Both the position numbers and the translations under genes were made by a program. Of a stretch of DNA of 31,456 nucleotides, positions 1 to 31,248 are shown piece by piece. Source of the DNA: a virus; the IMG/VR virus record IMGVR_UViG_3300045988_128093, positions 1 through 31,456 of that record. One strand, 5' to 3'. The notes beneath the pieces were generated by a model. That model did no database searches, was not told the origin of the DNA, and was given only the letters and a program-made list of their open reading frames with translations. Each line of letters opens with the position of its first letter. Position 1 is the stretch's first letter.

Positions 1-55
1 AAAAATATTAATAAAACTATTGACATATACGGCAATGCGTGTTAATATAATTACA
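1..55. repeat. Terminal direct repeat, copy 1 (identical to 31402..31456); most likely a circular-assembly overlap
   Basis: Compared base by base: the 55 nt aaaaatattaataaaactattgacatatacggcaatgcgtgttaatataattaca are identical at both window ends. Confidence 0.95.
21..49 (+). promoter_or_regulatory. Sigma-A type promoter driving the micro-peptide/HTH cassette
   Basis: TTGACA (21-26), 17-nt spacer, TG at 41-42, then TAATAT (44-49), an extended -10. An RBS (GAAAGGAGG) and the ATG at 72 follow. Confidence 0.6.
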
Positions 56-71
56 GAAAGGAGGTAGAAAG

Positions 72-182
72 ATGAGAAAGAAAAAAAGCAGCAACAAGGC
101 TGAAATGCTTAACCTCATCACTGCAACTATCAATTTGATAGCGTCCATAGCTACATTGATTATAGCAATAAGATATGGTTAA
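72..182 (+). CDS. 36-aa membrane micro-peptide (MRKKKSSNKAEMLNLITATINLIASIATLIIAIRYG); type I toxin / holin-like toxin architecture
   Basis: Manual translation; below the 60-aa cutoff of the ORF track. GGAGG lies 7 nt upstream of the ATG. Basic N-terminus followed by one predicted TM helix. Confidence 0.55.
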   Translation: MRKKKSSNKAEMLNLITATINLIASIATLIIAIRYG

Positions 183-187
183 GGCAA

Positions 188-207
188 GGGGGATAACACA
201 ATCCCCC
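188..207 (+). other. Intercistronic GC-rich hairpin (GGGGGAT / ATCCCCC, 6-nt loop)
   Basis: Perfect 7-bp stem between the two micro-ORFs. No U-tract, so it is not a canonical terminator. Confidence 0.4.
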
Positions 208-228
208 GCTCATCTAAAAAAAGATAAA

Positions 229-312
229 ATGAAGATATTAGCAATAACATTAAGTAGCATAGCGATTGTATTATCAATCTGTTCTATCATTGTTACTTTA
301 AAAAGGAGATAG
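229..312 (+). CDS. 27-aa membrane micro-peptide (MKILAITLSSIAIVLSICSIIVTLKRR); type I toxin-like
   Basis: Manual translation: a single TM helix ending in KRR, the layout seen in Fst/PepA1-type toxins. The RBS is weak, so this is less certain than the first peptide. Confidence 0.4.
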   Translation: MKILAITLSSIAIVLSICSIIVTLKRR

Positions 313-317
313 CTATA

Positions 318-497
318 ATGGAACTAAAGGAAATGCGAAAGCTTCTTGGATTATCACAATCAGCATTTGGCAAAAGATACAACATACCTGTAAGGACAAT
401 TCAAGATTGGGAGAGTGGTCGTAGAAAAGCCCCCATATATGTTCTTGAATTATTAGAAAGAGCAGTCGTTGAAGACTCAAAAGCTGAAACATATTAA
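318..497 (+). CDS. 59-aa XRE-family helix-turn-helix protein
   Basis: Manual translation: MELKEMRKLLGLSQSAFGKRYNIPVRTIQDWESGRRKAPIYVLELLERAVVEDSKAETY. Typical HTH_3 motif (LGLSQ..FG....TIQDWE.G). RBS AAAGGAG upstream. Confidence 0.75.
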   Translation: MELKEMRKLLGLSQSAFGKRYNIPVRTIQDWESGRRKAPIYVLELLERAVVEDSKAETY

Positions 498-513
498 TTA
501 TGTATTTACGATG

Positions 514-546
514 AAAAGAGAGACGATTAAGTCTCTCTTTTTTATT
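514..546 (+). terminator. Rho-independent terminator of the micro-peptide/HTH cassette
   Basis: Stem AAGAGAGAC (516-524) / GTCTCTCTT (531-539), 6-nt loop, then a T-run. Confidence 0.8.
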
Positions 547-581
547 GCAAAATTGACCTCCTATTGTGATAATAGTGAAGA

Positions 582-613
582 AGAGCGAGCCAGTCGCAGG
601 CCCGCTCTTTTTT
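582..613. terminator. Second terminator hairpin, possibly bidirectional, between convergent units
   Basis: AGAGCG-a-GCC (582-591) pairs with GGC-c-CGCTCT (599-608), followed by T6 on the plus strand. An A-run precedes it as read on the minus strand, directly after the RHH stop codon. Confidence 0.65.
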
Positions 614-764
614 ATTTCTTTAACTCTTCAACCTTTTCGCTCACTAGCAACTCTATGTAGTTACTGAGCGACCTATTTTCGCTAGAGGCTAGCTCTGTTA
701 CTGCCTCCTTGAGTGACGGTGTAAGTCTTACCGCCACTCTTTCTGTTCTCTTCTCTTCTCCCAT
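612..764 (-). CDS. 50-aa ribbon-helix-helix (CopG/Arc/MetJ-type) DNA-binding protein
   Basis: Manual translation of the minus strand: MGEEKRTERVAVRLTPSLKEAVTELASSENRSLSNYIELLVSEKVEELKK. Classic RHH pattern (beta strand RVAVRL, then two helices). RBS AAAGAGAGGG. Not in the ORF track (<60 aa). Confidence 0.8.
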   Translation of the reverse strand: MGEEKRTERVAVRLTPSLKEAVTELASSENRSLSNYIELLVSEKVEELKK

Positions 765-778
765 AATATTCCCTCTCT

Positions 779-1387
779 TTAAATAAAATCGACGATATCG
801 TCAAAATCAATTAATTCAATGCGTGTAGCTTTTGAATAATCTAAATCTTCAATGATCGTATCATTATCAACGTCATAATATGCCTTATACACACCGTCAG
901 AGGTCACAACGTACTGATAAAAATCATTACCATCAAAGCATTCGTCCCAACCGAACATATCACCGATTATATAATCGCCATTTTCAGCCGTAACCGTCAT
1001 ATGTTCAGGTATTCCGTACTTGTTGCGGAACTTATCACAGTGATATTGTTCTAGTGAATATTTGTCAAGTGGTGCAAACTCGCCAATCTCATTAGTATTA
1101 GATATAAAATCTCCGTCCTCATCTACAACTTGTGATTGTAAATAAATCTCCTCAATTTCCAAGTTTTCACCGACATAACCATAATTAGAATGATATTCAG
1201 CAAAAGCCTTTTTTGCATCGTCTAAATTCTCAAACTGTGCCAAAAGTTCAGCGCCATCTTCACAGCCTATTATACTTCCCGGTATATAATTCTTTATTTC
1301 GTCCCTTTTAAATCTTCTGCTCAATTCCTTGTCGTATCTGTATATTGCGTATATAGTTCTTTCCATCGTTTTATCCTCCTTGAGCAT
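779..1387 (-). CDS. Highly acidic protein of unknown function (195-202 aa)
   Basis: ORF track. Two plausible starts, each with a good RBS: 1387 (GAGGAG) and 1366 (AAGGAGGA). Very rich in D/E. I recognise no motif. Confidence 0.7.
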   Translation of the reverse strand: MLKEDKTMERTIYAIYRYDKELSRRFKRDEIKNYIPGSIIGCEDGAELLAQFENLDDAKKAFAEYHSNYGYVGENLEIEEIYLQSQVVDEDGDFISNTNEIGEFAPLDKYSLEQYHCDKFRNKYGIPEHMTVTAENGDYIIGDMFGWDECFDGNDFYQYVVTSDGVYKAYYDVDNDTIIEDLDYSKATRIELIDFDDIVDFI

Positions 1388-1412
1388 TTCGCTCTCCTCT
1401 TAACTTGTCTAC

Positions 1413-1441
1413 AGTATACACCTATTGTCGAACATTGTCAA
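1413..1441 (-). promoter_or_regulatory. Sigma-A type promoter for the acidic-protein/RHH operon
   Basis: Minus strand reads TTGACA (1441-1436), exactly 17 nt, then TATACT (1418-1413). The spacer holds a tandem TTGACAAT / TTCGACAAT. Confidence 0.6.
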
Positions 1442-1474
1442 CATATTTTTTAAAACTTTCTGAAAGTGTCTCAA

Positions 1475-1534
1475 ACAATTGCGTACAATTGGTGCAACAT
1501 TAGGTGCAACACCAATATCGGCAAATATCGGCAA
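1475..1534. repeat. Array of three phased direct-repeat pairs (candidate attP arm-type binding sites)
   Basis: ACAATTG at 1475 and 1485. GGTGCAACA at 1491 and 1503. ATATCGGCAA at 1515 and 1525. A further AGTGCAACACC lies at 1683..1693, on the other side of the tRNA fragment. Confidence 0.55.
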
Positions 1535-1597
1535 TAACACGAGTTAGACAAGCAAAAGAAAAACACCGCAACTCGTTAGAATTGCAGTGTTTTGAGG

Positions 1598-1642
1598 TGG
1601 TGTCCCGAAGAGGATTCGAACCTCCGACACCCGCTTTAGGAG
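1598..1642 (-). other. attP core candidate: 3' 45 nt of a tRNA-Arg(CCU) (anticodon loop to CCA), not a complete tRNA
   Basis: Minus strand reads CTCCTAA-AGCGG-GTGTC-GGAGG-TTCGAAT-CCTCT-TCGGGAC-A-CCA. These are the anticodon loop with CCT, anticodon-stem 3' strand, variable loop, T arm, acceptor 3' strand, discriminator and CCA. The matching 5' strands (GTCCCGA, CCGCT) are absent upstream. Confidence 0.7.
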
Positions 1643-1698
1643 TACAACAGAGATTATTGATATTTCAACGCGCTGAAGAGGAAGTGCAACACCAGAAA

Positions 1699-2715
1699 TC
1701 ACATCAATGCAGCAGCTTGATTTATTAGCTCGAAATCAACGTGTGTATATATGTTGGCAGTCATAGCTATATCGGCATGGCCCATTAGATATTGAGCTGT
1801 TCGGATATCAACACCGCGCTTCTGTAAGTTGGTGCAGAATGTATGGCGCAAAGAGTATGCAGATATATCAGTTGCGAGAGGATAAGGCGGCAAGAGTTCA
1901 TTGCGATATACCTTGCACCCCATATCTATATTCATTAGCCTAGATAAGTGCGCCCAGGCTCTCCGCTTATTATCCTTGTTCAGTTCTTTGCCTTGCTGAT
2001 TTTTGCAAAGCAATTCGAACGGAGATAATTTGCGCGGTAACAATTTAGCGAGGCCATCAACGATAGGCACATATCTATCTGCTGCCTTTGTTTTAGTTCC
2101 GCGAATATGTAAATATCGCTCACCATCTCGCATGACTATATCACGAAATTCAACTGCAGAGGCTTCGGAAGGGCGGCATCCCGCATAATACATCAATGCG
2201 AAATATACGGGCACATAATGTTGATTAAGTACATTCAAGAAGTGCTGTTCTTCTGATGTAGTTAATGAGCGTCTAGGATTGTAATAGCCAGAAGGCTTTA
2301 CAAGATTTTCAGTAGGATCTATATTGATTAGCTTGTTGATTTTCGCATATTTGAAAATAAAACGCAGCATCTGATATGTATCATTGATAGTTGCTTTTGA
2401 TTTAGAGCCTTTTAAATTCAAAACGCGCTGACACATGATAGGAGTTACATCCTTAATCAATAAAGCACCAATCTCATTGAGCACATATGATTTTAGCTTC
2501 TGCAAATACTTCTCGCGTGTTATTTCGCTCTGATTTACCTTGTAGGTATCAACGCATTCAAGCGCCCATGATGCAACAGTGCGCCTTGCTGGATTCAGCA
2601 CCTCATCGCGCTCAAGCGCCTGTTTCTTCAAAATGAGCTTTTCGATAGCAGCACGCTCGGTTTTTCCGCGCACAAAATAGCGCTTGCCATTGTATGTAAA
2701 TGTTTTAGTAATCAT
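1699..2715 (-). CDS. int: Tyrosine recombinase / phage integrase
   Basis: 338 aa. The C-terminal catalytic region carries RPSE...R, SLRHTFCTNL and LMGHADIAMTANIYTHV (the R-H-R-Y signature). Confidence 0.95.
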   Translation of the reverse strand: MITKTFTYNGKRYFVRGKTERAAIEKLILKKQALERDEVLNPARRTVASWALECVDTYKVNQSEITREKYLQKLKSYVLNEIGALLIKDVTPIMCQRVLNLKGSKSKATINDTYQMLRFIFKYAKINKLINIDPTENLVKPSGYYNPRRSLTTSEEQHFLNVLNQHYVPVYFALMYYAGCRPSEASAVEFRDIVMRDGERYLHIRGTKTKAADRYVPIVDGLAKLLPRKLSPFELLCKNQQGKELNKDNKRRAWAHLSRLMNIDMGCKVYRNELLPPYPLATDISAYSLRHTFCTNLQKRGVDIRTAQYLMGHADIAMTANIYTHVDFELINQAAALM

Positions 2716-2747
2716 TAAGGACCTCGATTAAATAAAAAGTTGTTTTT

Positions 2748-3533
2748 TTATTCTTCGATTTCGTCGTCTTCTGTTACTTCAGATTTCTTTTCCGCTGACA
2801 GGCTTTCATTCTTTTTCACATTATTCTTTACCCAACATGTTTGAACTCCATCAATATGTTCTTTTAAAGAATCGGCAATACTTGACATGCCCATTGGATC
2901 AAGTATAACATCAATGCCTTCGCGACGAGCAACCTTTGCCGCTGGAACAAAATCACTATCTCCTGCAATTAAAATTATTTGGTCAACTTGTCTTCTGTAT
3001 GCAAGAGATGCTATGTCAATTCCTAATTTCATATCTACACCTTTTTGCCTCCAGCTAGGAGAAAAATCCATCTCTGTTAAATCATCTAGTGTGATTTGGT
3101 TATGTAATAAAGCTTTCATTCTGTCTGGCTTAATTGCGAAGGTCGCACCGGAATCAAGCAGATAACCTTTACGAAGACACATTTTTCGCTGCTCCTTGAG
3201 GTAACTAAAGAATTCCAGTGTCCATTTATATGTATCTGTTTTCTCAAAATCTATATTTTTCTTTAAATAAGGATGATAGACAACCTTGGATAATGGATTA
3301 CAGTCATAATAGAATATTCTATAAAGTTGTCTATCAGAACCAACGCAGTCCTTTGGATGAAGTTGTTTATTATCAGAATAAATATAAACATCATTTGTTC
3401 TAACCTTTTGTATATGCGACATACAATAGGCGTATAATTCGTTGGCTCTTGATTTAGGTTCTTTATGTCCCCAACGAGTTGCGGCTCTTTTTCTATAAAA
3501 ACCACCATCAACAAATATAGCTGTTTTGTTCAT
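2748..3533 (-). CDS. NYN-domain (LabA/PIN-like) putative ribonuclease with an acidic C-terminal tail
   Basis: N-terminal AIFVDGGF and KGVDMKLGIDIASLA...IILIAGDSDFVPAAKVARREGIDV match the NYN (PF01936) acidic-residue pattern. RBS AGGAGG. Confidence 0.75.
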   Translation of the reverse strand: MNKTAIFVDGGFYRKRAATRWGHKEPKSRANELYAYCMSHIQKVRTNDVYIYSDNKQLHPKDCVGSDRQLYRIFYYDCNPLSKVVYHPYLKKNIDFEKTDTYKWTLEFFSYLKEQRKMCLRKGYLLDSGATFAIKPDRMKALLHNQITLDDLTEMDFSPSWRQKGVDMKLGIDIASLAYRRQVDQIILIAGDSDFVPAAKVARREGIDVILDPMGMSSIADSLKEHIDGVQTCWVKNNVKKNESLSAEKKSEVTEDDEIEE

Positions 3534-3544
3534 TAATACCTCCT

Positions 3545-3605
3545 AAAATTAAAAGCTCTAGACCTCAGCCACACCCATATCCGCGGGTTGCCTACTATCT
3601 AGAGC
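3545..3605 (-). promoter_or_regulatory. Terminator-like structured leader upstream of the NYN gene
   Basis: On the minus strand, GCTCTAGA ... TCTAGAGC (8-bp closing stem) encloses an imperfect inner hairpin (GGCAACCC / GGGUGU). It is followed by CUUUUAAUUUU and then the NYN RBS. Confidence 0.45.
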
Positions 3606-4168: not shown

Positions 4169-4420
4169 CTAAACGCACAGTGGTGATGCTGTTGTGTGAT
4201 GCCTTAATCCCTCAAGCTCATCAATAGACATCATAGAAGAGAAATCACAGTTGCTGATATGCTCCAGCTCGTGTGCATAAGATGAGCGGTGCCGCTCTGC
4301 GGTATCTCTGGCATTTAAAATAATAGTGTAAAAAATCTCACCATTCGCATCTATGCAATAAGTTGTAACACCATGCACACGATGCGGAAGGTCAATGAAT
4401 TTAACTTGAATGCAGTTCAT
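4169..4420 (-). CDS. immA: Short ImmA/IrrE-like zinc metallopeptidase (anti-repressor protease)
   Basis: HEXXH motif (YAHELEHI). Its start overlaps the upstream XRE repressor stop by 1 nt (TAATG). The repressor lacks an S24 domain. Confidence 0.6.
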   Translation of the reverse strand: MNCIQVKFIDLPHRVHGVTTYCIDANGEIFYTIILNARDTAERHRSSYAHELEHISNCDFSSMMSIDELEGLRHHTTASPLCV

Positions 4421-4791
4421 TAATCTTCATCTCCGAATTGGTCTTTTTTTAACTTTTCAAGAATAGAAGCAACGCTCAATATATCTTCTTTAGTCACATT
4501 GCGCGAAGCATCAAATAGCACCTTTAATTCTGGGCGCTCGTACATCTCTTTAGCGGCTTCTGCTGCATCTGGATCTAAATAATACGTTGATTTATTTTCT
4601 CTACCGAGCAAATAATCAATAGATACATTGAAAAAATCAGCAATCTCTTCTTGGCTCTCAAAACTTGGCTTGCGATCACCTGTTTCATATGCACCAATTA
4701 ACGATTTTGAAACTCCGAGCGCCTTTGCAAGAGAAACTTGCGAATAACCGCGCTTTATTCTTAATTCTTTTAAAACATCTTTAAATTCCAT
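4420..4791 (-). CDS. XRE-family CI-like repressor (ImmR-type)
   Basis: Start moved to MEFKDVLKELRIKRGYSQVSLAKALGVSKSLIGAYETGDRKPS (HTH_3). Divergent from the Cro-like gene. Confidence 0.85.
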   Translation of the reverse strand: MEFKDVLKELRIKRGYSQVSLAKALGVSKSLIGAYETGDRKPSFESQEEIADFFNVSIDYLLGRENKSTYYLDPDAAEAAKEMYERPELKVLFDASRNVTKEDILSVASILEKLKKDQFGDED

Positions 4792-4829
4792 TTTGCAATT
4801 TCCCTTCCTTATATACCCACATATAAAGT

Positions 4830-4912
4830 ACACCTAAAGTGGAATAAAAGCAATAAAAAATCACTAAAAGTGGAAAAAAGTACTTGACACCCACTATGAA
4901 TGGACTTATACT
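4830..4912. promoter_or_regulatory. Immunity switch region: PR promoter plus three related 13-bp operators
   Basis: PR is TTGACA (4884-4889), 17 nt, TATACT (4907-4912). The operators resemble CCACTAAAAGTGG and lie at 4830-4842, 4861-4873 and 4891-4903, the last inside the PR spacer. Confidence 0.65.
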
Positions 4913-7509: not shown

Positions 7510-7895
7510 TGAAGGGCAAAGCTGAATGCGATGCATGCGGCTGGGAACACGGAACACCGGGCGAAAATCGAGCATTTAGATGGTGCAGACGAATCAGAGG
7601 CGATGTGTGCGATAAGTGTTGCAAGGCATGTGAGCATAACGATGATTGGCATTGCAACTATGACAAAATGGGGCGATTAAAAATGAGGGAGCTTATTTTT
7701 AAAAATCGCATGGAAGAAATCAAGCTAGAGCGTTACAAGTCGCAATTAAAGCATGTGAAATCGCCAATAATTGCGGAGCATATCAGAGGCATTATATCAA
7801 TCATCGAATCACAGATTGAAGAGCGCGAAGCTTTGGAAGAAAAGATATGGAGTGGCGAAATCAATTATCTGGAGAAAGAAAATGAACGAGAATGA
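7509..7895 (+). CDS. Hypothetical Cys-rich protein
   Basis: ORF track. Ten cysteines in the first 50 residues. Confidence 0.6.
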   Translation: MKGKAECDACGWEHGTPGENRAFRWCRRIRGDVCDKCCKACEHNDDWHCNYDKMGRLKMRELIFKNRMEEIKLERYKSQLKHVKSPIIAEHIRGIISIIESQIEEREALEEKIWSGEINYLEKENERE

Positions 7896-8070
7896 AGTTA
7901 TATATGAAGCTGACGAATACGACAGAGCATCAGTTGAATTTTTAGCCAGCGAATTCATGCTTGAAAACAGAAGACAGCCAACAATTGAAGAGTTGCATGT
8001 GCTGCAAACAGGCTTCACGGCTGGAATTAAATTTATGAACAAGCTAATCGAGGAGAGCTGCAATGAATGA
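7882..8070 (+). CDS. Hypothetical protein (62 aa)
   Basis: Start moved to MNENEV, with RBS GGAG. Confidence 0.5.
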   Translation: MNENEVIYEADEYDRASVEFLASEFMLENRRQPTIEELHVLQTGFTAGIKFMNKLIEESCNE

Positions 8071-8886: not shown

Positions 8887-9003
8887 AAAGCTATAAGGGC
8901 GGTAGCAAATATTTACCTCTATAATAAGCAAATCAAACTTGTATCGGTCATGAAGAAACTCCAATCAGCTGCCGCCTTTATATATGAAAGGGAAAATATA
9001 TAT

Positions 9004-10233
9004 ATGAAATTTATTGACTTCTTCTCTGGAGTGGGGGGGTTCACAAGAGGTTTGGAACTAGCAAATCATGAATGCATAGGGCACTGCGAATTCGACAAAT
9101 TCGCAGAAGCAAGCTACAGATCTATGCACACCATAACGGAAGAGCAACGAGCTCGCCTTGGTGAACAAGATAAAAAGAAAAGACAGAAGGAGATTTTGAA
9201 AAGTGAATACCTCAATGGAGAATGGTATGCAAATGATGTTCGAGCAGTTAGAGCTGCCAATATGCCAGTTGCAGACTGCTGGACCTTCGGAGCACCTTGT
9301 CAAGATTTCAGCATCGCTGGAAGAAGAGCAGGACTTGACGGAGAGCGAAGCAGTCTTGTGCGAGAAATTTTTAGAATCTTGGAAGAAACAGAAGAAACAA
9401 ATAAGCCCGAATGGCTTATATATGAAAACGTTAAAGGAATGCTGTCTGCTGGCAGAGGACTCGACTTCTTGTCAATCCTCGCTGAAATGGACCGACTCGG
9501 GTACGATGCAGAATGGCAGATTATCAATTCTAGATGGTATGTTCCGCAAAATCGGGAGCGCGTATACGTTATCGGACATAATCGAAGAAGACGCAGAGCC
9601 ACGATATTTCCTATCACGGGAAATGGCGGAGAAAATAGTACAAGGCAATTAATTGGCGGAGCACAGGCGCACCAAGTATATGATAGCAACGGAATCGCTT
9701 GCACGCAGAACGCACAAGCTGGCGGAGTTGGCGCGAAAACAGGGCTATATGCATTTGGTATAGACAAATCATCCAACAAACCACAGGAGCTACAAGTTGC
9801 GAACTGCCTTATGACAAAAGATTACGGAGTATCGAAGAGAAGAAGCGATGATACAGCCATTGCAATTCCTGTTTTAACACCAGCTAGAACAGAAAAGCGC
9901 CAAAATGGAAGAAGATGCAAGGAAGCTGGGGAAGATATGTTTACTCTAACAGCTCAAGACCAACACGGAATCGCAATCAAGGTCAAAGAAGCAACAAAAG
10001 GTGTGAAAGACATCTGGGCAGTGTGGAGCGAAAAGTATAATTGCTATTTAGCAATTAGAAAGCTGACACCTAAAGAGTGCTTTAGATTACAAGGGTGGAC
10101 AGATGATTATTTCGAAAAAGCAGAATTCGTAAACAGTAACAGCCAATTATACAAGCAAGCTGGAAACGGAGTCACAGTGAATGTTGTTAAAGCGATCGGC
10201 GAAAAGATAAAGGAGTGTGAACATGATAATTAA
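9004..10233 (+). CDS. DNA (cytosine-5) methyltransferase
   Basis: Motif I FFSGVGGF, IV GAPCQDFSIAG, VI ENVKGM, VIII QNRERVYVIG, X GNGVTVNV. Start moved to MKFIDFFSG. Confidence 0.95.
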   Translation: MKFIDFFSGVGGFTRGLELANHECIGHCEFDKFAEASYRSMHTITEEQRARLGEQDKKKRQKEILKSEYLNGEWYANDVRAVRAANMPVADCWTFGAPCQDFSIAGRRAGLDGERSSLVREIFRILEETEETNKPEWLIYENVKGMLSAGRGLDFLSILAEMDRLGYDAEWQIINSRWYVPQNRERVYVIGHNRRRRRATIFPITGNGGENSTRQLIGGAQAHQVYDSNGIACTQNAQAGGVGAKTGLYAFGIDKSSNKPQELQVANCLMTKDYGVSKRRSDDTAIAIPVLTPARTEKRQNGRRCKEAGEDMFTLTAQDQHGIAIKVKEATKGVKDIWAVWSEKYNCYLAIRKLTPKECFRLQGWTDDYFEKAEFVNSNSQLYKQAGNGVTVNVVKAIGEKIKECEHDN

Positions 10234-13596: not shown

Positions 13597-14733
13597 ATGA
13601 AAATAGAGAAAATCGCTATCAAAGAAATAAAACCGAATGAGAATAATGCAAAGCTCCATCCACAGTGGCAGCTCGACCAGATAAAAGAAAGTATAGTTCA
13701 ATTCGGTAATAATGATCCTATCGCCATTGATGAAAATAATGTTGTGATAGAAGGTCACGGAAGATTGATGGCACTGGAGCAATTAGGCTATGAAGAGGCT
13801 GAAATTATAAGGCTCGAACACCTAACGGAAGAGCAGAAGAGCGCATACATTCTGGCACACAACAAGCTCACCATGAACACTGATTTTGATTTAGAAATCC
13901 TAGAAGAAGAACTGGGCAAAATTAAATCAATTGATATGCAAGATTTTGGCTTCGAACTCACACTTGATTTAGAAGAGATAGAAGCTGAAGAGGATGAATA
14001 CCTCGGAACATCACCAGCAGAACCACGCACGAAGTATGGTGATATATTTCAACTTGGACGACACAGATTGATGTGTGGTGATGCAACAAACATTGATGAT
14101 GTAAATTTGCTGCTGGATGATTGCAAAATAGATGTTGTGTTGACAGACCCGCCATATGGAATCAACGTTGTAACAGACAGTGGGAAGGTGGGAGCAAAAT
14201 TCAAAGTAACAGTTGCAAAAAAAGGAGATTATGAAAAGATAATCGCTGATGAAACAACAGATACCGCGCAAGAGGCGTGCGATATACTGCTAACAATATG
14301 TGATAGATGCATTATATGGGGGGGCAACTACTTCACAGAGTTTTTGCCGTTTAGCGATAGCTATCTTGTATGGGATAAAAGAGTTGATAGTGGTATCAGA
14401 AATACATTCGCTGATGGTGAGCTTGCGTGGTGTAGCTTTAAAACACCAGTACGAATCTATCATCAGTTATGGAATGGCATGATAAGAGAGGGCGAACAGG
14501 AGAAGAGAGTGCATCCAACTCAAAAGCCTGTAAGAATGCTTGGCGATATTTTGAAAGACTTTTCAGATGAAGACGACAATATTTTAGATGTATTTGGTGG
14601 AAGCGGTTCAACACTTATTGCATGTGAGCAGTTAGGTAGAAATTGCTTTGTAATGGAGATGAGTCCAAAGTATTGTGATGTAATAATTGATAGATGGGAA
14701 AAGTACACAGGCGAAATTGCAAAGCGAATATAA
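13597..14733 (+). CDS. ParB-like nuclease domain fused to an N6-adenine/N4-cytosine DNA methyltransferase (beta class)
   Basis: N-terminal ParBc-like region (IKPNENNAKLHP...GHGRL). Motif IV VLTDPPYG precedes the SAM-binding motif I LDVFGGSGSTLIACEQLGR. Confidence 0.9.
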   Translation: MKIEKIAIKEIKPNENNAKLHPQWQLDQIKESIVQFGNNDPIAIDENNVVIEGHGRLMALEQLGYEEAEIIRLEHLTEEQKSAYILAHNKLTMNTDFDLEILEEELGKIKSIDMQDFGFELTLDLEEIEAEEDEYLGTSPAEPRTKYGDIFQLGRHRLMCGDATNIDDVNLLLDDCKIDVVLTDPPYGINVVTDSGKVGAKFKVTVAKKGDYEKIIADETTDTAQEACDILLTICDRCIIWGGNYFTEFLPFSDSYLVWDKRVDSGIRNTFADGELAWCSFKTPVRIYHQLWNGMIREGEQEKRVHPTQKPVRMLGDILKDFSDEDDNILDVFGGSGSTLIACEQLGRNCFVMEMSPKYCDVIIDRWEKYTGEIAKRI

Positions 14734-15994: not shown

Positions 15995-16369
15995 GTGAAA
16001 AATCTAATGACAGAAAAAGAGATAAAGCAAGAAGAGCAGAAAATCGCGAAACTAAATGAATATTATCTTGAATTATTTTGCCCGCCAGACGAAGATAACG
16101 AAGGGTGCAAAGAATTCGACAAGATGAAGGGATTGATTTTAAACCTTGCAAGATGTGAAGCTGGGCTTGAACAGTTGCATGAGGCACTGCAAGAGAGTGG
16201 CGGCATAGTGTTGAGACACCCTCGCAATCCTCAACTCCTGAAAGCTAATCCGCTCAATGCTGAAATCTTAAAGCAAAGAGCACAGATGGTGAACATCATG
16301 CAGATGCTTGAGCGCCATCTAGGCAGTAATGCTGATTATGAAGAGGACGAATTGAATGAATTTATGTAA
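15995..16369 (+). CDS. terS: Terminase small subunit, P27 family
   Basis: RHPRNPQLLKANPLNAEILKQRAQMVNIMQMLERHLG resembles the conserved core of P27-family TerS. The start is ambiguous (GTG 15995 or ATG 16007). Confidence 0.65.
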   Translation: MKNLMTEKEIKQEEQKIAKLNEYYLELFCPPDEDNEGCKEFDKMKGLILNLARCEAGLEQLHEALQESGGIVLRHPRNPQLLKANPLNAEILKQRAQMVNIMQMLERHLGSNADYEEDELNEFM

Positions 16370-18065
16370 AAAGAGTGGCACACACTCTTTTTTAATTGAA
16401 TACGCAAATAAGATACAGAGTGGCGAAATCCCTGCGTGTTGGTGGATTAAGCTGCAATACAAGTTGCTGCTTGAAGATATTGAAAAGCCAGATGAAATCT
16501 TTGATGTTGAAGAGGCTCACAAGCGAATTAGATTCATTGAGGCAAAGTGCAAGCATACGAAATCGCCATTCGCCGGGAAGCCTGTTTATTTAGAACTCTG
16601 GGAAAAAGCTATTATTGAAGCTGCATATGGCTTCTATGTGCTTAATGAAAATGGCGAGCGCATACGGAAATACACATATGTACTTCTTTTCATTCCGAGA
16701 AAAAATGGCAAATCAACATTGGCCGCAGCTCTAGGCAATGCAGAATTCTTTTGCGGCAACTGGGGAACTGTGATATTTTGCGCCAGCAATGACTATGAGC
16801 AAGCTGATATCGTATTCACCGAAATTGATTCGATGCGTGATTTATCGGCATCACTTGAAAGAGTGACAAGACGAAATAACACAGGCATCTATTTTGGCAA
16901 CAGGAAACAGAGACGAAAAACAGGAAAATTCAGCAAACAAAATAAAGCTGAAATCAAGAAGATATCCGCGCGAAAAAAAGGCAAGGAAGGGCGCAACATT
17001 GACTTGGCGATTGTTGATGAATCACACGAAATGGAAGATGAAACACTTATCGAACCGCTAGTGCAATCAATGAGCACCAAGGATGAATGCTTGATGATTG
17101 AAATAACCACGGAAGGCACGGTTGACGATGGGCATCTTGACAAGAAGATTCAAGAGGCAAAAGCTGTGCTAAAAGGTGAGCGCGAGCGAGGCCAATCGCT
17201 ATATTTTCTGTACACGATGGATAATGAAGAGGAAGTCTGGACGAATCCTGATAGCTGGGTGAAAGCTAATCCGAATCTTGGTGTATCAAAGAAGATGCGC
17301 TATTTAACTAGAGAAGTTGAAGAGGCTAGAGGCAGCTCGACAAAGAGAAGCTGGACACTGTGCAAGGATTTTAACATCAAGCAATCAAACGCGAATGCCT
17401 GGCTAGATCCAGAAATCATCAGAAATGAAAAAACATTCGACATGGAAGATGTGCGAGGGCGCATGTATCTGGGCGGAGTTGATTTAGCTGTTACAACAGA
17501 CCTTATGTGTCTAACAATGCTATTTCAGCCAGAATCAGAATTTCTGGCGCATCAACATTTCTGGATGCCGAAGAGCAAGCTTGAATATCGCAATGATGAA
17601 AAAGCTGGCGCTAACTATGAGCAATGGGCGCGCGATGGATGGATAACAATTGTTGATGATGTTGATATCGATACAGCAATTGTTGCTGATTATGAATATC
17701 AGATGTATAAGGAGTTCGGAGTGCTGCCATTTAAGGGCGGTTATGATAATAGATTTGCTAAATCGTACATCAAGCGACACAAAGAATTATTCGGTGATGG
17801 CATACTTGAAAATGTGCCTCAAGATGCAAAAGGGCTTTCAAATCCAATGAACAACACCGAAGAGAACTTGAGGCAAAAGAAAATCAATTATCAGAACAAC
17901 CCTGTGACATATTGGTGCTTCAAAAATTGCAGTTATAAACAAGATAATATAGGGCGCATCATGCCGAAGCGAATCAAGCGCGAAATGAAAATAGACGGAG
18001 CAGCATCCTACCTTGATGCTGTTTTTGTTTATCAAAGTTACAGAAATGAATATTCAATGATTTAG
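16356..18065 (+). CDS. terL: Terminase large subunit
   Basis: Walker A PRKNGKST, Walker B LAIVDESHE; size and position fit. Confidence 0.9.
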   Translation: MNLCKKSGTHSFLIEYANKIQSGEIPACWWIKLQYKLLLEDIEKPDEIFDVEEAHKRIRFIEAKCKHTKSPFAGKPVYLELWEKAIIEAAYGFYVLNENGERIRKYTYVLLFIPRKNGKSTLAAALGNAEFFCGNWGTVIFCASNDYEQADIVFTEIDSMRDLSASLERVTRRNNTGIYFGNRKQRRKTGKFSKQNKAEIKKISARKKGKEGRNIDLAIVDESHEMEDETLIEPLVQSMSTKDECLMIEITTEGTVDDGHLDKKIQEAKAVLKGERERGQSLYFLYTMDNEEEVWTNPDSWVKANPNLGVSKKMRYLTREVEEARGSSTKRSWTLCKDFNIKQSNANAWLDPEIIRNEKTFDMEDVRGRMYLGGVDLAVTTDLMCLTMLFQPESEFLAHQHFWMPKSKLEYRNDEKAGANYEQWARDGWITIVDDVDIDTAIVADYEYQMYKEFGVLPFKGGYDNRFAKSYIKRHKELFGDGILENVPQDAKGLSNPMNNTEENLRQKKINYQNNPVTYWCFKNCSYKQDNIGRIMPKRIKREMKIDGAASYLDAVFVYQSYRNEYSMI

Positions 18066-29915: not shown

Positions 29916-30314
29916 ATGATGAGTGTTGAAGTTATTTCAAAGATGTATATTCCGTTAGTGCTAGTATTTTGTCTTTGTATAGGATATATATTGAAAAAGT
30001 TTATGCCGACTGATAACAAAATAATCCCAACGGTACTTTTTGTTATCGGAATGGTGTGCGGCGTTATTTGTCTAGGCGTTAGCTTCGAAGCAATCGTGAA
30101 GGGCGGTGTTACAGGACTAGCAGCAACGGGCTTCCATCAGATGTTTAAGCAACTAATCGAAGGCTCAAAAAAAGACGATACAAAAGAATTTAAGATGCCA
30201 GCGCCAGCAGACGAAAATAAAAATATAAATGAAGAGGCTATTGCGGAGAATTTAAAAAGAGCAGAGGTGTTAAGCGATGGGGAAGAGGGAACAAATAATC
30301 AACACCGCCATTAG
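29916..30314 (+). CDS. Holin
   Basis: Predicted TM helices plus a charged C-terminal tail. It lies directly upstream of the endolysin and overlaps it. Confidence 0.65.
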   Translation: MMSVEVISKMYIPLVLVFCLCIGYILKKFMPTDNKIIPTVLFVIGMVCGVICLGVSFEAIVKGGVTGLAATGFHQMFKQLIEGSKKDDTKEFKMPAPADENKNINEEAIAENLKRAEVLSDGEEGTNNQHRH

Positions 30315-31248
30315 ATATAATGGCATGGCATTCAAGGGCGGGTCACACCGCACCTTGATTGATGTTTTCAACAAATATAAACCAGATGGCGCACCAATGA
30401 CATACACCGCCAATTTTTGCGCTGCATGCGCATCTGCAGTAGCATACATATGCGGCCTTGGCGATGCATATCCGTGTTCATACAATGTTGGAACGATTGT
30501 GCGGAAAGCGCAGCAAATGGGCATCTGGGTTGAAAACGACAATTTCACACCATCACCAGGAGACTGGATCATCTATGATTGGAATGATGATGGAAGAGGC
30601 GACAACACCAGAGGTGCTAGCCACGTTGGAATTGTCGTATCAGTTAGCTCTGGGATGATTAATGTGTTCGAATTCAACATCGGAAATCGCCACACGACAG
30701 GATATAGAAGAGTAGCCATCAATGGGCGATTTATTCGAGGTTTTGTGCATCCAAATTTTCAAACAACAGGCTGGATACAAGACAACGTCGGGTGGTGGTA
30801 TAGAAAATCTGATGGCAGTTATCCCAAGAGTACATGGCAACAATTCGATGGCGAATGGTATTATTTCAACGAACATGGATACGCAGTAACAGGCTGGCAG
30901 CAGATTGATGGCAAGTGGTACTATTTCGGAATAAATTGCAAGATGCAGATAGGTTGGCAATCAATCAATGATAAATGGTACTTCCTAGATCCAACAGAAG
31001 GCAGCATGTACGGAAATGGTGTGCATATGATTGAGGGGAAGAATTATTTCTTCAATTCTAGCGGGGCTATGCAGACAGGCTGGCAAATGATTGATGGCGA
31101 ATGGCAGCATTTTGAATCTGATGGCGCTCGTACAGAGAAGGGCATCGTGAAGGGCGATAAAATTTACATCATCAAAGATGGAAAGCTAGTCACAAATGAT
31201 GATGTTGAAGTACGAGCGAATGAGCAAGGGGAAATCTCTGTGAAGTAA
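30277..31248 (+). CDS. Endolysin: N-terminal CHAP/NlpC-P60-like amidase plus C-terminal cell-wall-binding (CW_binding_1) repeats
   Basis: Catalytic Cys context FCAACASAV and His context GASHVGIV. About six repeats of the GW..(I/F)DG(K/E)WYYF type. Confidence 0.85.
   Translation: MGKREQIINTAIRYNGMAFKGGSHRTLIDVFNKYKPDGAPMTYTANFCAACASAVAYICGLGDAYPCSYNVGTIVRKAQQMGIWVENDNFTPSPGDWIIYDWNDDGRGDNTRGASHVGIVVSVSSGMINVFEFNIGNRHTTGYRRVAINGRFIRGFVHPNFQTTGWIQDNVGWWYRKSDGSYPKSTWQQFDGEWYYFNEHGYAVTGWQQIDGKWYYFGINCKMQIGWQSINDKWYFLDPTEGSMYGNGVHMIEGKNYFFNSSGAMQTGWQMIDGEWQHFESDGARTEKGIVKGDKIYIIKDGKLVTNDDVEVRANEQGEISVK

Follow-up and report, generated by a model that had tools for sequence, protein, structure and literature searches.

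A ribbon-helix-helix operon with exchangeable acidic cargo at the prophage edge of a Mogibacterium phage: a candidate counter-defence locus

The window, that is the whole stretch of DNA analysed here, comprises the 31,456 nucleotides of the IMG/VR virus record IMGVR_UViG_3300045988_128093 and represents a complete-looking temperate siphovirus-type genome (31.5 kb, 40.6% GC). On its minus strand, between the lysis end of the genome and the attachment site attP, lies a two-gene operon composed of a strong predicted promoter, a short leader, a gene for an acidic protein, a gene for a small ribbon-helix-helix (RHH) protein and a hairpin. Comparison with related loci suggests that the RHH gene belongs to the fixed frame of a slot in which the acidic gene is one of several exchangeable cargo alleles. 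This organization resembles that of acr-aca operons, and the cargo may be directed against host defence.

Promoter, genes and hairpin of the operon

The operon is headed by a sigma-70-type promoter, TTGACA-17-TATACT, at 1441..1413 on the minus strand (-35 box at 1441..1436, -10 box at 1418..1413). This promoter, already reported in an initial annotation made from the sequence alone, scores 11/12 and is the best match within positions 1..1800. Its core is unchanged in nine of nine promoter copies from related phages, which include P1 and P2, a duplicated pair in the loci L017 and L019 with a cargo gene behind each promoter. The -35 box and the spacer are spanned by the 17-mer TTGACAATGTTCGACAA (1425..1441, minus strand), which occurs once in the window and contains two direct T(T/C)GACAA repeats 10 bp, or one helical turn, apart. 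All 17 bases are invariant in the nine copies, as are the stretch GTTGACAATGTTCGACAA and the AGACAAG after the -10 box, while the flanking sequence diverges, strongly so between the duplicated P1 and P2 copies. Among the invariant bases are eleven spacer bases that are dispensable for sigma-70 recognition.

With one A/T change and the same promoter geometry, the 17-mer occurs twice in a Peptoniphilus hominis prophage and in metagenome relatives, where it adjoins the gene for an RHH protein 35% identical to that of the window (BLASTP, 3e-10). This locus again follows the lysis genes, and other small acidic genes surround the motif. Because the motif is nearly fixed while the adjoining RHH protein has diverged to 35% identity, TTGACAATGTTCGACAA is probably the operator to which the RHH protein would bind. 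An 18-mer promoter scan of genomes returned mostly chance matches, the Peptoniphilus locus being the only informative one. By coincidence, the 18-mer GTTGACAATGTTCGACAA lies within coding sequence of six unrelated bacterial genomes (L035-L038, L042 and L043); the sequence around it is presumably that of a ParA-type ATPase gene, with codons for VLTMFDKR. Motif searches with GTTGACAATGTTCGACAA need an added -10 box for specificity.

The AGACAAG sequence holds a third GACAA box (1405..1409, minus strand), located just after the -10 box at a distance of 20 bp from the second repeat. Nowhere else in the window do the three boxes occur in this arrangement, for which 0.01 chance matches would be expected. 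Because TATAGACAAGCTAAAGAG is likewise present behind the -10 box of an unrelated phage backbone, whose RHH gene is a different one, the third box possibly lies outside the operator and may be a feature of the transcription start. Right after the -10 box, TATAATATAGACAAGCTAAAGAG is common to L007 (5079..5125), the equivalent promoters of L005 and L006, and the P1 promoters of L017 and L019. The promoters that share it differ, between this second backbone and the Mogibacterium phages, in the -35 box, the spacer and the RHH protein.

The promoter is followed by a conserved 5' leader of 46 nt (1367..1412, minus strand) with an AAGGAGG ribosome-binding site, which forms the upstream border of the cargo slot. 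A possible leader hairpin, GAGC-N5-GCTC, was discarded as not significant (z -1.5).

The open reading frame (ORF) of the first gene extends over 779..1387 on the minus strand (202 aa), and its product had been annotated as a protein of 195-202 aa. The longer version was rejected: all 14 aligned homologues start at M8, an AAGGAGG lies 7 nt upstream of this codon, and in L023 the upstream ATG belongs to another reading frame. The real gene is therefore 779..1366, with 195 aa. The pI, whose calculation the initial annotation had recommended, is 4.13, with 45 D/E against 17 K/R residues and a net charge of -28, and the ORF has the most negative charge per residue among the window ORFs of at least 100 aa. 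The earlier description as very acidic is hence fair, and "extremely" D/E-rich is overstated for a protein with 23% acidic and 15% aromatic residues. Values of dN/dS between 0.24 and 0.43 across homologue pairs indicate that the gene is real and that the purifying selection acting on it is fairly relaxed.

The acidic protein had been noted to lack any recognisable motif, and indeed no match was obtained with Pfam (at E <= 1), PHROG, PADLOC or NCBIfam. No sequence relative was present in the PDB, and a scan of one genome per species gave no relative either. PDB sequence and profile searches with the full acidic protein, both of its domains and the RHH protein yielded nothing with E below 0.07. 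A word-index search retrieved 17 close relatives only, all of them unnamed and metagenomic. The AlphaFold2 model of the full-length protein, calculated with 15 close homologues, reached a pLDDT of 45 and was unusable.

The second gene (612..764, minus strand) has a GAGAGGG site and lies 14 nt after the stop codon of the acidic gene. Its product was correctly recognised in the initial annotation as an RHH protein of 50 aa. Affiliation with the RHH superfamily (CopG/Arc/MetJ-type) is given by profile matches over the strand-helix-helix core: Pfam RHH_1 with 20.7 bits against a cut-off of 20.5 (residues 9-46), RHH_5 with E = 9e-6 and the PHROG "Arc-like repressor" with 3e-8. Weak sub-threshold matches to RelB-like, HicB and DUF6290 models were also obtained. 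The core occupies residues 8-48 of the 50 and leaves no room for a toxin-binding tail. Sequence identities range between 82 and 100% in nine IMG/VR phage loci and between 66 and 96% across 25 protein clusters, and in the Mogibacterium phage loci the RHH gene is the last gene before the hairpin. In these alignments it appears as the conserved anchor gene of the slot, and its product is presumed to be the autorepressor of the operon promoter. Autoregulation by the RHH protein had been suggested before, and the present analysis supports the idea.

Two nucleotides after the RHH stop codon, a GC-rich hairpin with an 11-bp stem (583..609) is encoded on both strands. Its folding energy is -19.9 kcal/mol (z -3.8) on the minus strand and -22.3 kcal/mol (z -5.1) on the plus strand, with a good T-run on the plus strand only. 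A simple terminator scan missed it, the plus-strand stem having one mismatch and the minus-strand T-run being poor. The hairpin is likely the operon terminator and could act bidirectionally. It had been described as shared with a convergent cassette on the plus strand; the hairpin itself is present, but the helix-turn-helix (HTH) gene of that cassette has a hairpin of its own at about 520..545. A further hairpin of 6 bp, TTGACGATATCGTCGA followed by TTTTATTT (789..804, minus strand), falls within the final codons of the acidic gene, just ahead of the RHH gene; it resembles a terminator and could dampen read-through into the RHH gene.

A conserved frame around exchangeable cargo

RHH-anchored loci from about 20 related contigs were compared, and cargo families were defined by BLASTP. 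In the related contigs, homology to the window begins in the integrase region and extends across attP, the promoter and the leader as far as the start codon (..1369/1370). In L018, L021 and L023, homology covers 1720..1369/1370 and resumes over 766-786..300, with nucleotide identities ranging between 84 and 99%; the sequence between 1369/1370 and 766-786 is unrelated among the sister phages. The genes upstream of the RHH gene fall into eight unrelated families. They encode soluble, acidic proteins of 73-195 aa, seven of the eight families having an acidic representative (pI 4.1-4.9) and one a pI of 6.3. Two tandem promoter-cargo units are present in each of L017 and L019.

Two independent sister-phage assemblies carry the same 148-nt out-of-frame deletion in the acidic gene together with an RHH identical to that of the window. 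The carriers are L010/L016/L027 (IMGVR_UViG_3300045988_144442) and L065 (ERZ773051 NODE-406), aligned to the window at about 1209..1369. The deletion, which joins ATGGAAAGAA to GGCTTTTG between short repeats, frameshifts the acidic gene, and an ORF covering its C-terminal domain (127 aa from a TTG start or 73 aa from an ATG start) stays open. Judged from this reading frame, a truncated product consisting of the C-terminal domain only is possible.

The acidic gene also occurs in an unrelated phage backbone, represented by L007, which encodes a large subunit of the Terminase_6 type, two SSB genes and a dGTP-diphosphohydrolase-type gene. Its only homology to the window is the segment 1369..779 (97.5% nucleotide identity), which starts 3 nt ahead of the ATG and ends with the stop codon of the ORF. 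Acidic homologues in this second backbone are 74-84% identical in protein alignments (94% for L007 by tblastn) and lie within a variable multi-gene operon; no integrase was found within the 12-kb loci examined. In L006 (553..3012) and L007 (1666..4122) the large terminase is interrupted by a LAGLIDADG-type intein/homing endonuclease and has 818-819 aa, versus 483 aa in other members of the second backbone.

The RHH of the second backbone, encoded two genes downstream in L007, was considered as a homolog of the window RHH and rejected, the two being not homologous. It is 35% identical to Aca14 over 43 aa (E = 3e-5); the sequence of Aca14 (P. multocida, 67 aa) and its operator were taken from the supplement of PMC13551039. 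Aca14 from Pasteurella multocida is an RHH-type regulator validated in 2026 (NAR; PMC13551039 / bioRxiv 10.64898/2026.07.27.740549), and Aca proteins of the RHH type act as repressors of acr operons and of other anti-defence operons (PMC13551039). In the consensus promoter of the second backbone, the spacer and the -10 box are covered by an AT-rich inverted repeat (L005, L006 and L007), and the repeat of L005, TATATG-CGTA-CATATA, has the same core as the published Aca14 operator. On this comparison, the acidic gene family is cargo in two types of operon that are governed by different RHH proteins, and one of these types is Aca14-like. Within the frame of the window, the RHH gene can be regarded as the fixed part and the acidic gene as one cargo allele, because the flanks are conserved, the acidic gene has been transferred alone and it has been lost without the RHH gene. 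The architecture of a cargo slot with an RHH regulator is accordingly proposed with high confidence.

When 1.8 billion cluster representatives were searched exhaustively with a profile of the acidic protein, 79 hits were obtained, most of them proteins of 80-110 aa. Because most of the hits match the C-terminal half only, the acidic protein is taken to be a fusion of two uncharacterised domains. The N-domain (1067..1366, minus strand; about residues 1-100) has the motif F-E/D-N-L-D/E-D/E-A ... E-E-Y-x-L ... V-D-E-D-G-D, and the C-domain (782..1066, minus strand; about residues 101-195) the motif G-x-D-E-C-F-D ... F-Y-Q-Y ... Y-K-x-Y-Y ... D-Y. Each domain is also found as a stand-alone gene in phages and plasmids. 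The N-domain occurs alone in P0018, P0080 and P0086 and is weakly similar to a cargo protein of 103 aa from the same slot in the sister phage L017 (BLASTP, 1e-3). L008 has, besides its full-length copy, a partial paralogue with the N-domain only (7640..7918; 77.6% nucleotide identity to window positions 1381..1101), which lies about 1 kb further downstream.

In the C-domain, G139, D141-E142-C143-F144-D145, F149-Y150-Q151-Y152, Y160, Y163-Y164 and D176-Y177 are conserved. The family is acidic, with a median pI of 4.1 and 36 of 38 members below 5. The initial annotation had asked for a predicted structure and a Foldseek comparison; the full-length model did not serve this purpose, but the C-domain, modelled with AlphaFold2 from 38 diverse homologues, reached a pLDDT of 89.5 and consists of one helix followed by five strands. 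No known fold was matched by Foldseek at E < 0.27 (PDB) or E < 0.21 (BFVD). The best matches were Hfq/Sm chains (probability 0.6, target-normalised TM about 0.45-0.5, E = 0.4). Pfam and PHROGs gave nothing useful for the 38 family members, one of which matches Pfam LSM with E = 0.003. The Hfq/Sm-like (LSM) resemblance of the model is taken as a lead only and not as a membership.

Stand-alone C-domain genes occupy accessory regions of mobile elements. In L013, the gene is situated between the lysis genes and the gene for a serine integrase, and an orphan Dam methylase is encoded two genes away; in L014, it is found on a Rep3 plasmid beside a topoisomerase; and in L015, it belongs to a run of small genes on a ParA/PemK-bearing element. 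Furthermore, the C-domain is fused in P0055 to an XRE-type HTH of the same kind as the 59-aa HTH protein of the window (BLASTP, 2e-8) and in P0081 to pentapeptide repeats.

The phage around the operon

The phage encodes a tyrosine integrase (1699..2715), a CI-like HTH repressor (4420..4833), a large terminase (16356..18065) and a holin with a CHAP/choline-binding endolysin (29916..31248). As had been proposed from the sequence, attP adjoins the operon: its core (1598..1642, minus strand) is identical to the 3' 45 nt of tRNA-Arg(CCT) at the prophage junctions of Mogibacterium diversum. This human oral anaerobe was identified as the host from genes flanking the prophage, which include those for PurA and FocA-like proteins. 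A complete tRNA-Arg(CCT) is present at the junction of the integrated prophages L070 and L076 (metagenome scaffolds), where homology to the window starts at 1642, within the tRNA. In the integrated copies, the full tRNA is directly followed by the operon, which forms the outermost prophage feature at that end. After the attP core lies a terminator-like hairpin of 15 bp (1593..1560, minus strand), which would restore the tRNA terminator upon integration. On the 1.0-Mb scaffold ERZ28637125 scaffold_1, the RHH locus is present twice, 31,865 bp apart (L070 and L071), one copy adjoining host genes and the other the integrase; this duplication reflects either two prophages in tandem or an assembly in which integrated and circular forms were merged.

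Two DNA methyltransferases, both apparently orphan, are encoded on the plus strand: a C-5 cytosine enzyme (8950..10233; PF00145, 1.5e-55) and an N6/N4 enzyme (13597..14733; PF01555, 1.6e-21). They are likely anti-restriction functions of the same phage, which, because it carries both of them, can be said to invest in counter-defence. Next to the integrase, a protein of 261 aa with a NYN domain (2748..3533, minus strand; Pfam NYN, 1.3e-12; PHROG 5783, 5e-79) weakly matches the PADLOC NYN nuclease model (1e-6) and is kept in the sister phages L010 and L071. It may represent a prophage-encoded nuclease or defence gene.

Window positions 1..560 hold a second optional cassette on the plus strand, convergent with the acidic/RHH operon. 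It consists of a promoter (20..48), two genes for hydrophobic micro-peptides of 36 aa (72..182) and 27 aa (about 229..312), the XRE-type HTH gene (318..497, 59 aa) and its own terminator hairpin mentioned above. The cassette is present in the sister phages L018, L022, L023, L070-L073 and L076-L078, and absent from L017, L019-L021, L024, L074 and L075, where the RHH gene abuts the endolysin gene. A megablast search of window positions 1..3600 against 50,697 GenBank phages gave no match, and tblastn against GenBank phages a single weak match, which is unannotated. An Rfam search of positions 1..1800 returned sub-threshold terminator-like matches only.

A possible counter-defence operon and its relation to known systems

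We interpret the locus as an acr-aca-like operon that is autoregulated by its RHH protein and whose exchangeable cargo probably acts against host defence, with a rough probability of 0.55. HTH-type Aca regulators repress such promoters, and autorepression of a strong promoter is described for Aca proteins in general (PMC9410906). A comparable course is proposed for the RHH operon. When host polymerase first reads the phage DNA, the near-consensus promoter would give a burst of bicistronic mRNA, and translation of the second gene would supply the minimal 50-aa RHH protein. Once accumulated, this protein would bind the direct repeats of TTGACAATGTTCGACAA over the -35 box and the spacer and shut its own promoter. 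The hairpin at 583..609 would end the transcript and thereby prevent antisense transcription of the convergent HTH and lysis genes. The first gene would provide the exchangeable cargo, in our case the 195-aa acidic two-domain fusion, which most likely would bind and block a host protein, probably a component of a defence system.

Two traits of acr-aca operons are found at the locus: a small regulator gene conserved beside variable small cargo (eight families between fixed slot borders), and a promoter of 11/12 whose conserved repeats are able to serve as operator. The occurrence of the acidic gene family in two RHH-governed operon types provides the strongest, though indirect, argument for a counter-defence role. 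The anti-defence function considered in the initial annotation thereby gains indirect support, from the acr-aca-like build and from the Aca14-like RHH operon of the homologues.

Several observations weigh against this interpretation. The scans of the cargo proteins with Pfam and PHROG gave neither a match nor a validated or homologous anti-defence family, and the functional claim draws on architecture and association only. The window RHH was rejected as a member of the Aca14 family, as BLASTP gave no alignment between the two proteins and the candidate operator of the window is a direct repeat over the -35 box, versus an inverted repeat over the -10 box for Aca14. The 17-mer together with a -10 box also precedes unrelated chromosomal genes, for example a phosphofructokinase-like gene (L059), and part of its conservation could reflect promoter strength alone; the few chromosomal occurrences are compatible with chance among very many consensus promoters. 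Finally, the position of the locus at the edge of the prophage, with the lysis genes on one side and attP on the other, is the classic one for lysogenic-conversion "morons", and morons can serve the host rather than the phage.

This position leads to the alternative of a lysogenic-conversion or superinfection-exclusion moron, in which the cargo, expressed from the prophage, would protect the lysogen against other phages or alter host physiology and the RHH protein would only set the expression level. In favour of this alternative, the operon carries a promoter and a terminator of its own and borders attR and the tRNA as the outermost feature of the prophage, where morons of temperate Firmicutes phages typically lie; its presence or absence and the allele variation among near-identical phages fit defence hotspots as well. 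Yet the cargo proteins are small (73-195 aa), soluble and acidic and none of them belongs to a Pfam family, no PADLOC defence model matches the acidic protein, the RHH protein or the two neighbours tested, and the same acidic gene is found in an operon with an Aca14-like RHH gene, in 12-kb loci where no integrase was seen. We regard the moron as possible but rather improbable. An Ocr/ArdA-type DNA mimic that blocks type I restriction or BREX, as favoured in the initial annotation, is unlikely. It would agree with the net charge of -28 over 195 aa and the low pI throughout the C-domain family, and with the one relative fused to pentapeptide repeats, a fold known as DNA mimic in Qnr and MfpA. 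The comparison failed, however, in every test apart from charge: neither Ocr, ArdA nor any other Pfam model matched at E <= 1, PDB searches gave no sequence relative, and the confident C-domain model is compact and barrel-like, with no Foldseek match below the E values given above. Many of the conserved positions are aromatic (F/Y) and accompany a fixed D-E-C-F-D motif, a pattern that speaks for a folded binding surface and less for charges in a periodic array.

A further alternative is an antirepressor module similar to P22 immI, where Arc accompanies Ant: the acidic protein would inactivate the phage repressor, and the RHH protein would keep the acidic gene silent in the lysogen. An Arc-type RHH protein (PHROG, 3e-8) co-transcribed with a larger protein from a strong, probably repressed promoter formally follows the same logic as the Pant-arc-ant arrangement of P22. 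The gene order, however, is reversed, ANT or KilAC-type domains were not detected with Pfam, and the acidic gene is disrupted in two phage assemblies. Moreover, an antirepressor would have to match its cognate repressor, and this requirement fits poorly with the unrelated cargo that occupies the slot in sister phages whose integrase regions are 86-99% identical. The antirepressor is therefore given little credence. For a type II toxin-antitoxin system in reversed order, with the acidic protein as toxin, it could be argued that RHH antitoxins are common, that the sub-threshold RelB-like, HicB and DUF6290 matches point in this direction and that loss of the "toxin" with the RHH gene kept is the tolerated direction of decay. 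Any obligate acidic/RHH pair, including the two-gene defence or toxin-antitoxin pair of the initial annotation, was nevertheless rejected on comparative grounds: the RHH gene has partners from eight families in the slot, the acidic gene moved alone into the second backbone (homology limited to 1369..779) beside a non-homologous RHH gene, and its loss left the RHH gene intact. In addition, the RHH protein comprises the DNA-binding fold only and lacks a toxin-neutralising extension, and none of the models of Pfam, NCBIfam or PADLOC, those of toxin families among them, matches the acidic protein. The comparative data largely refute the toxin-antitoxin reading, which retains a very small probability.

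A more far-reaching version of the counter-defence interpretation is offered tentatively, at clearly less than even odds. The slot defined by the RHH gene and the 17-bp motif might represent a catalogue of new anti-defence proteins in phages of oral and gut Clostridia, with at least eight unannotated families and more in the Peptoniphilus relatives. The C-domain, with at least 79 cluster representatives, might likewise be a new widespread inhibitor module that acts alone or fused to the N-domain, an HTH or pentapeptide repeats. Equally tentative is the idea that the RHH protein founds a second RHH-type Aca family, Gram-positive and using direct rather than inverted repeats. If the counter-defence interpretation holds, the RHH gene and the 17-bp motif would offer a searchable handle for counter-defence genes in phages of Mogibacterium, Peptoniphilus and related oral or gut anaerobes, and a second RHH family would be added to the very recently described RHH-type Aca regulators. 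Two uncharacterised small domains would be flagged as candidate inhibitors, one of them with a confident predicted fold and no structural match; as single-gene cassettes with ends exactly at the ORF borders, they are exchanged between temperate and other phage backbones. If the interpretation is wrong, the locus would still provide a clear case of a moron slot whose recombination borders are defined.

Among known systems, toxin-first RHH toxin-antitoxin loci (BrnTA, HicAB) share with the operon a larger gene followed by a small RHH gene under one promoter; in contrast, the window has neither a conserved partner, a toxin domain nor a C-terminal neutralising extension on the RHH protein. Ocr (T7 gp0.3) and ArdA are, similar to the acidic protein, small and strongly acidic products of phages or plasmids, apparently expressed early from a strong promoter, but sequence and predicted fold are dissimilar and conservation concerns aromatic residues and the D-E-C-F-D motif, not the charge pattern alone. 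The immI region of P22 (Arc, Mnt and Ant) resembles the operon in a minimal Arc-like RHH protein that is co-transcribed with a larger protein from a probably repressed promoter; it differs in gene order, and the cargo of the window is unrelated to Ant and varies between near-identical phages.

Closer parallels exist with the acr-aca loci. In those with HTH-type regulators (Aca1 and Aca2) and in the acrIIA1 locus of Listeria, a conserved regulator anchors a slot of variable small inhibitors, and the acrIIA1-anchored locus is marked by autorepression of a strong promoter. The fusion P0055, with its HTH and C-domain, resembles Acr proteins that carry their own regulator domain. The regulator of the window, in contrast, is an RHH and not an HTH protein, and the hosts are oral Clostridia (Mogibacterium and Peptoniphilus). 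The Aca14 acr-aca operon likewise combines a strong promoter, small, variable and mostly unannotated cargo and a small RHH gene in one operon, with repeats within the promoter and a motif reused on neighbouring cargo promoters, as seen here for P1 and P2 of L017 and L019. It differs in that the window RHH has no detectable similarity to Aca14, no cargo protein corresponds to a known Acr and the window locus is known from sequence alone. The operon is hence best filed as a case of the known kind of regulator-anchored anti-defence operon, marked by its distinct RHH family, its direct-repeat operator candidate and its wholly uncharacterised cargo.

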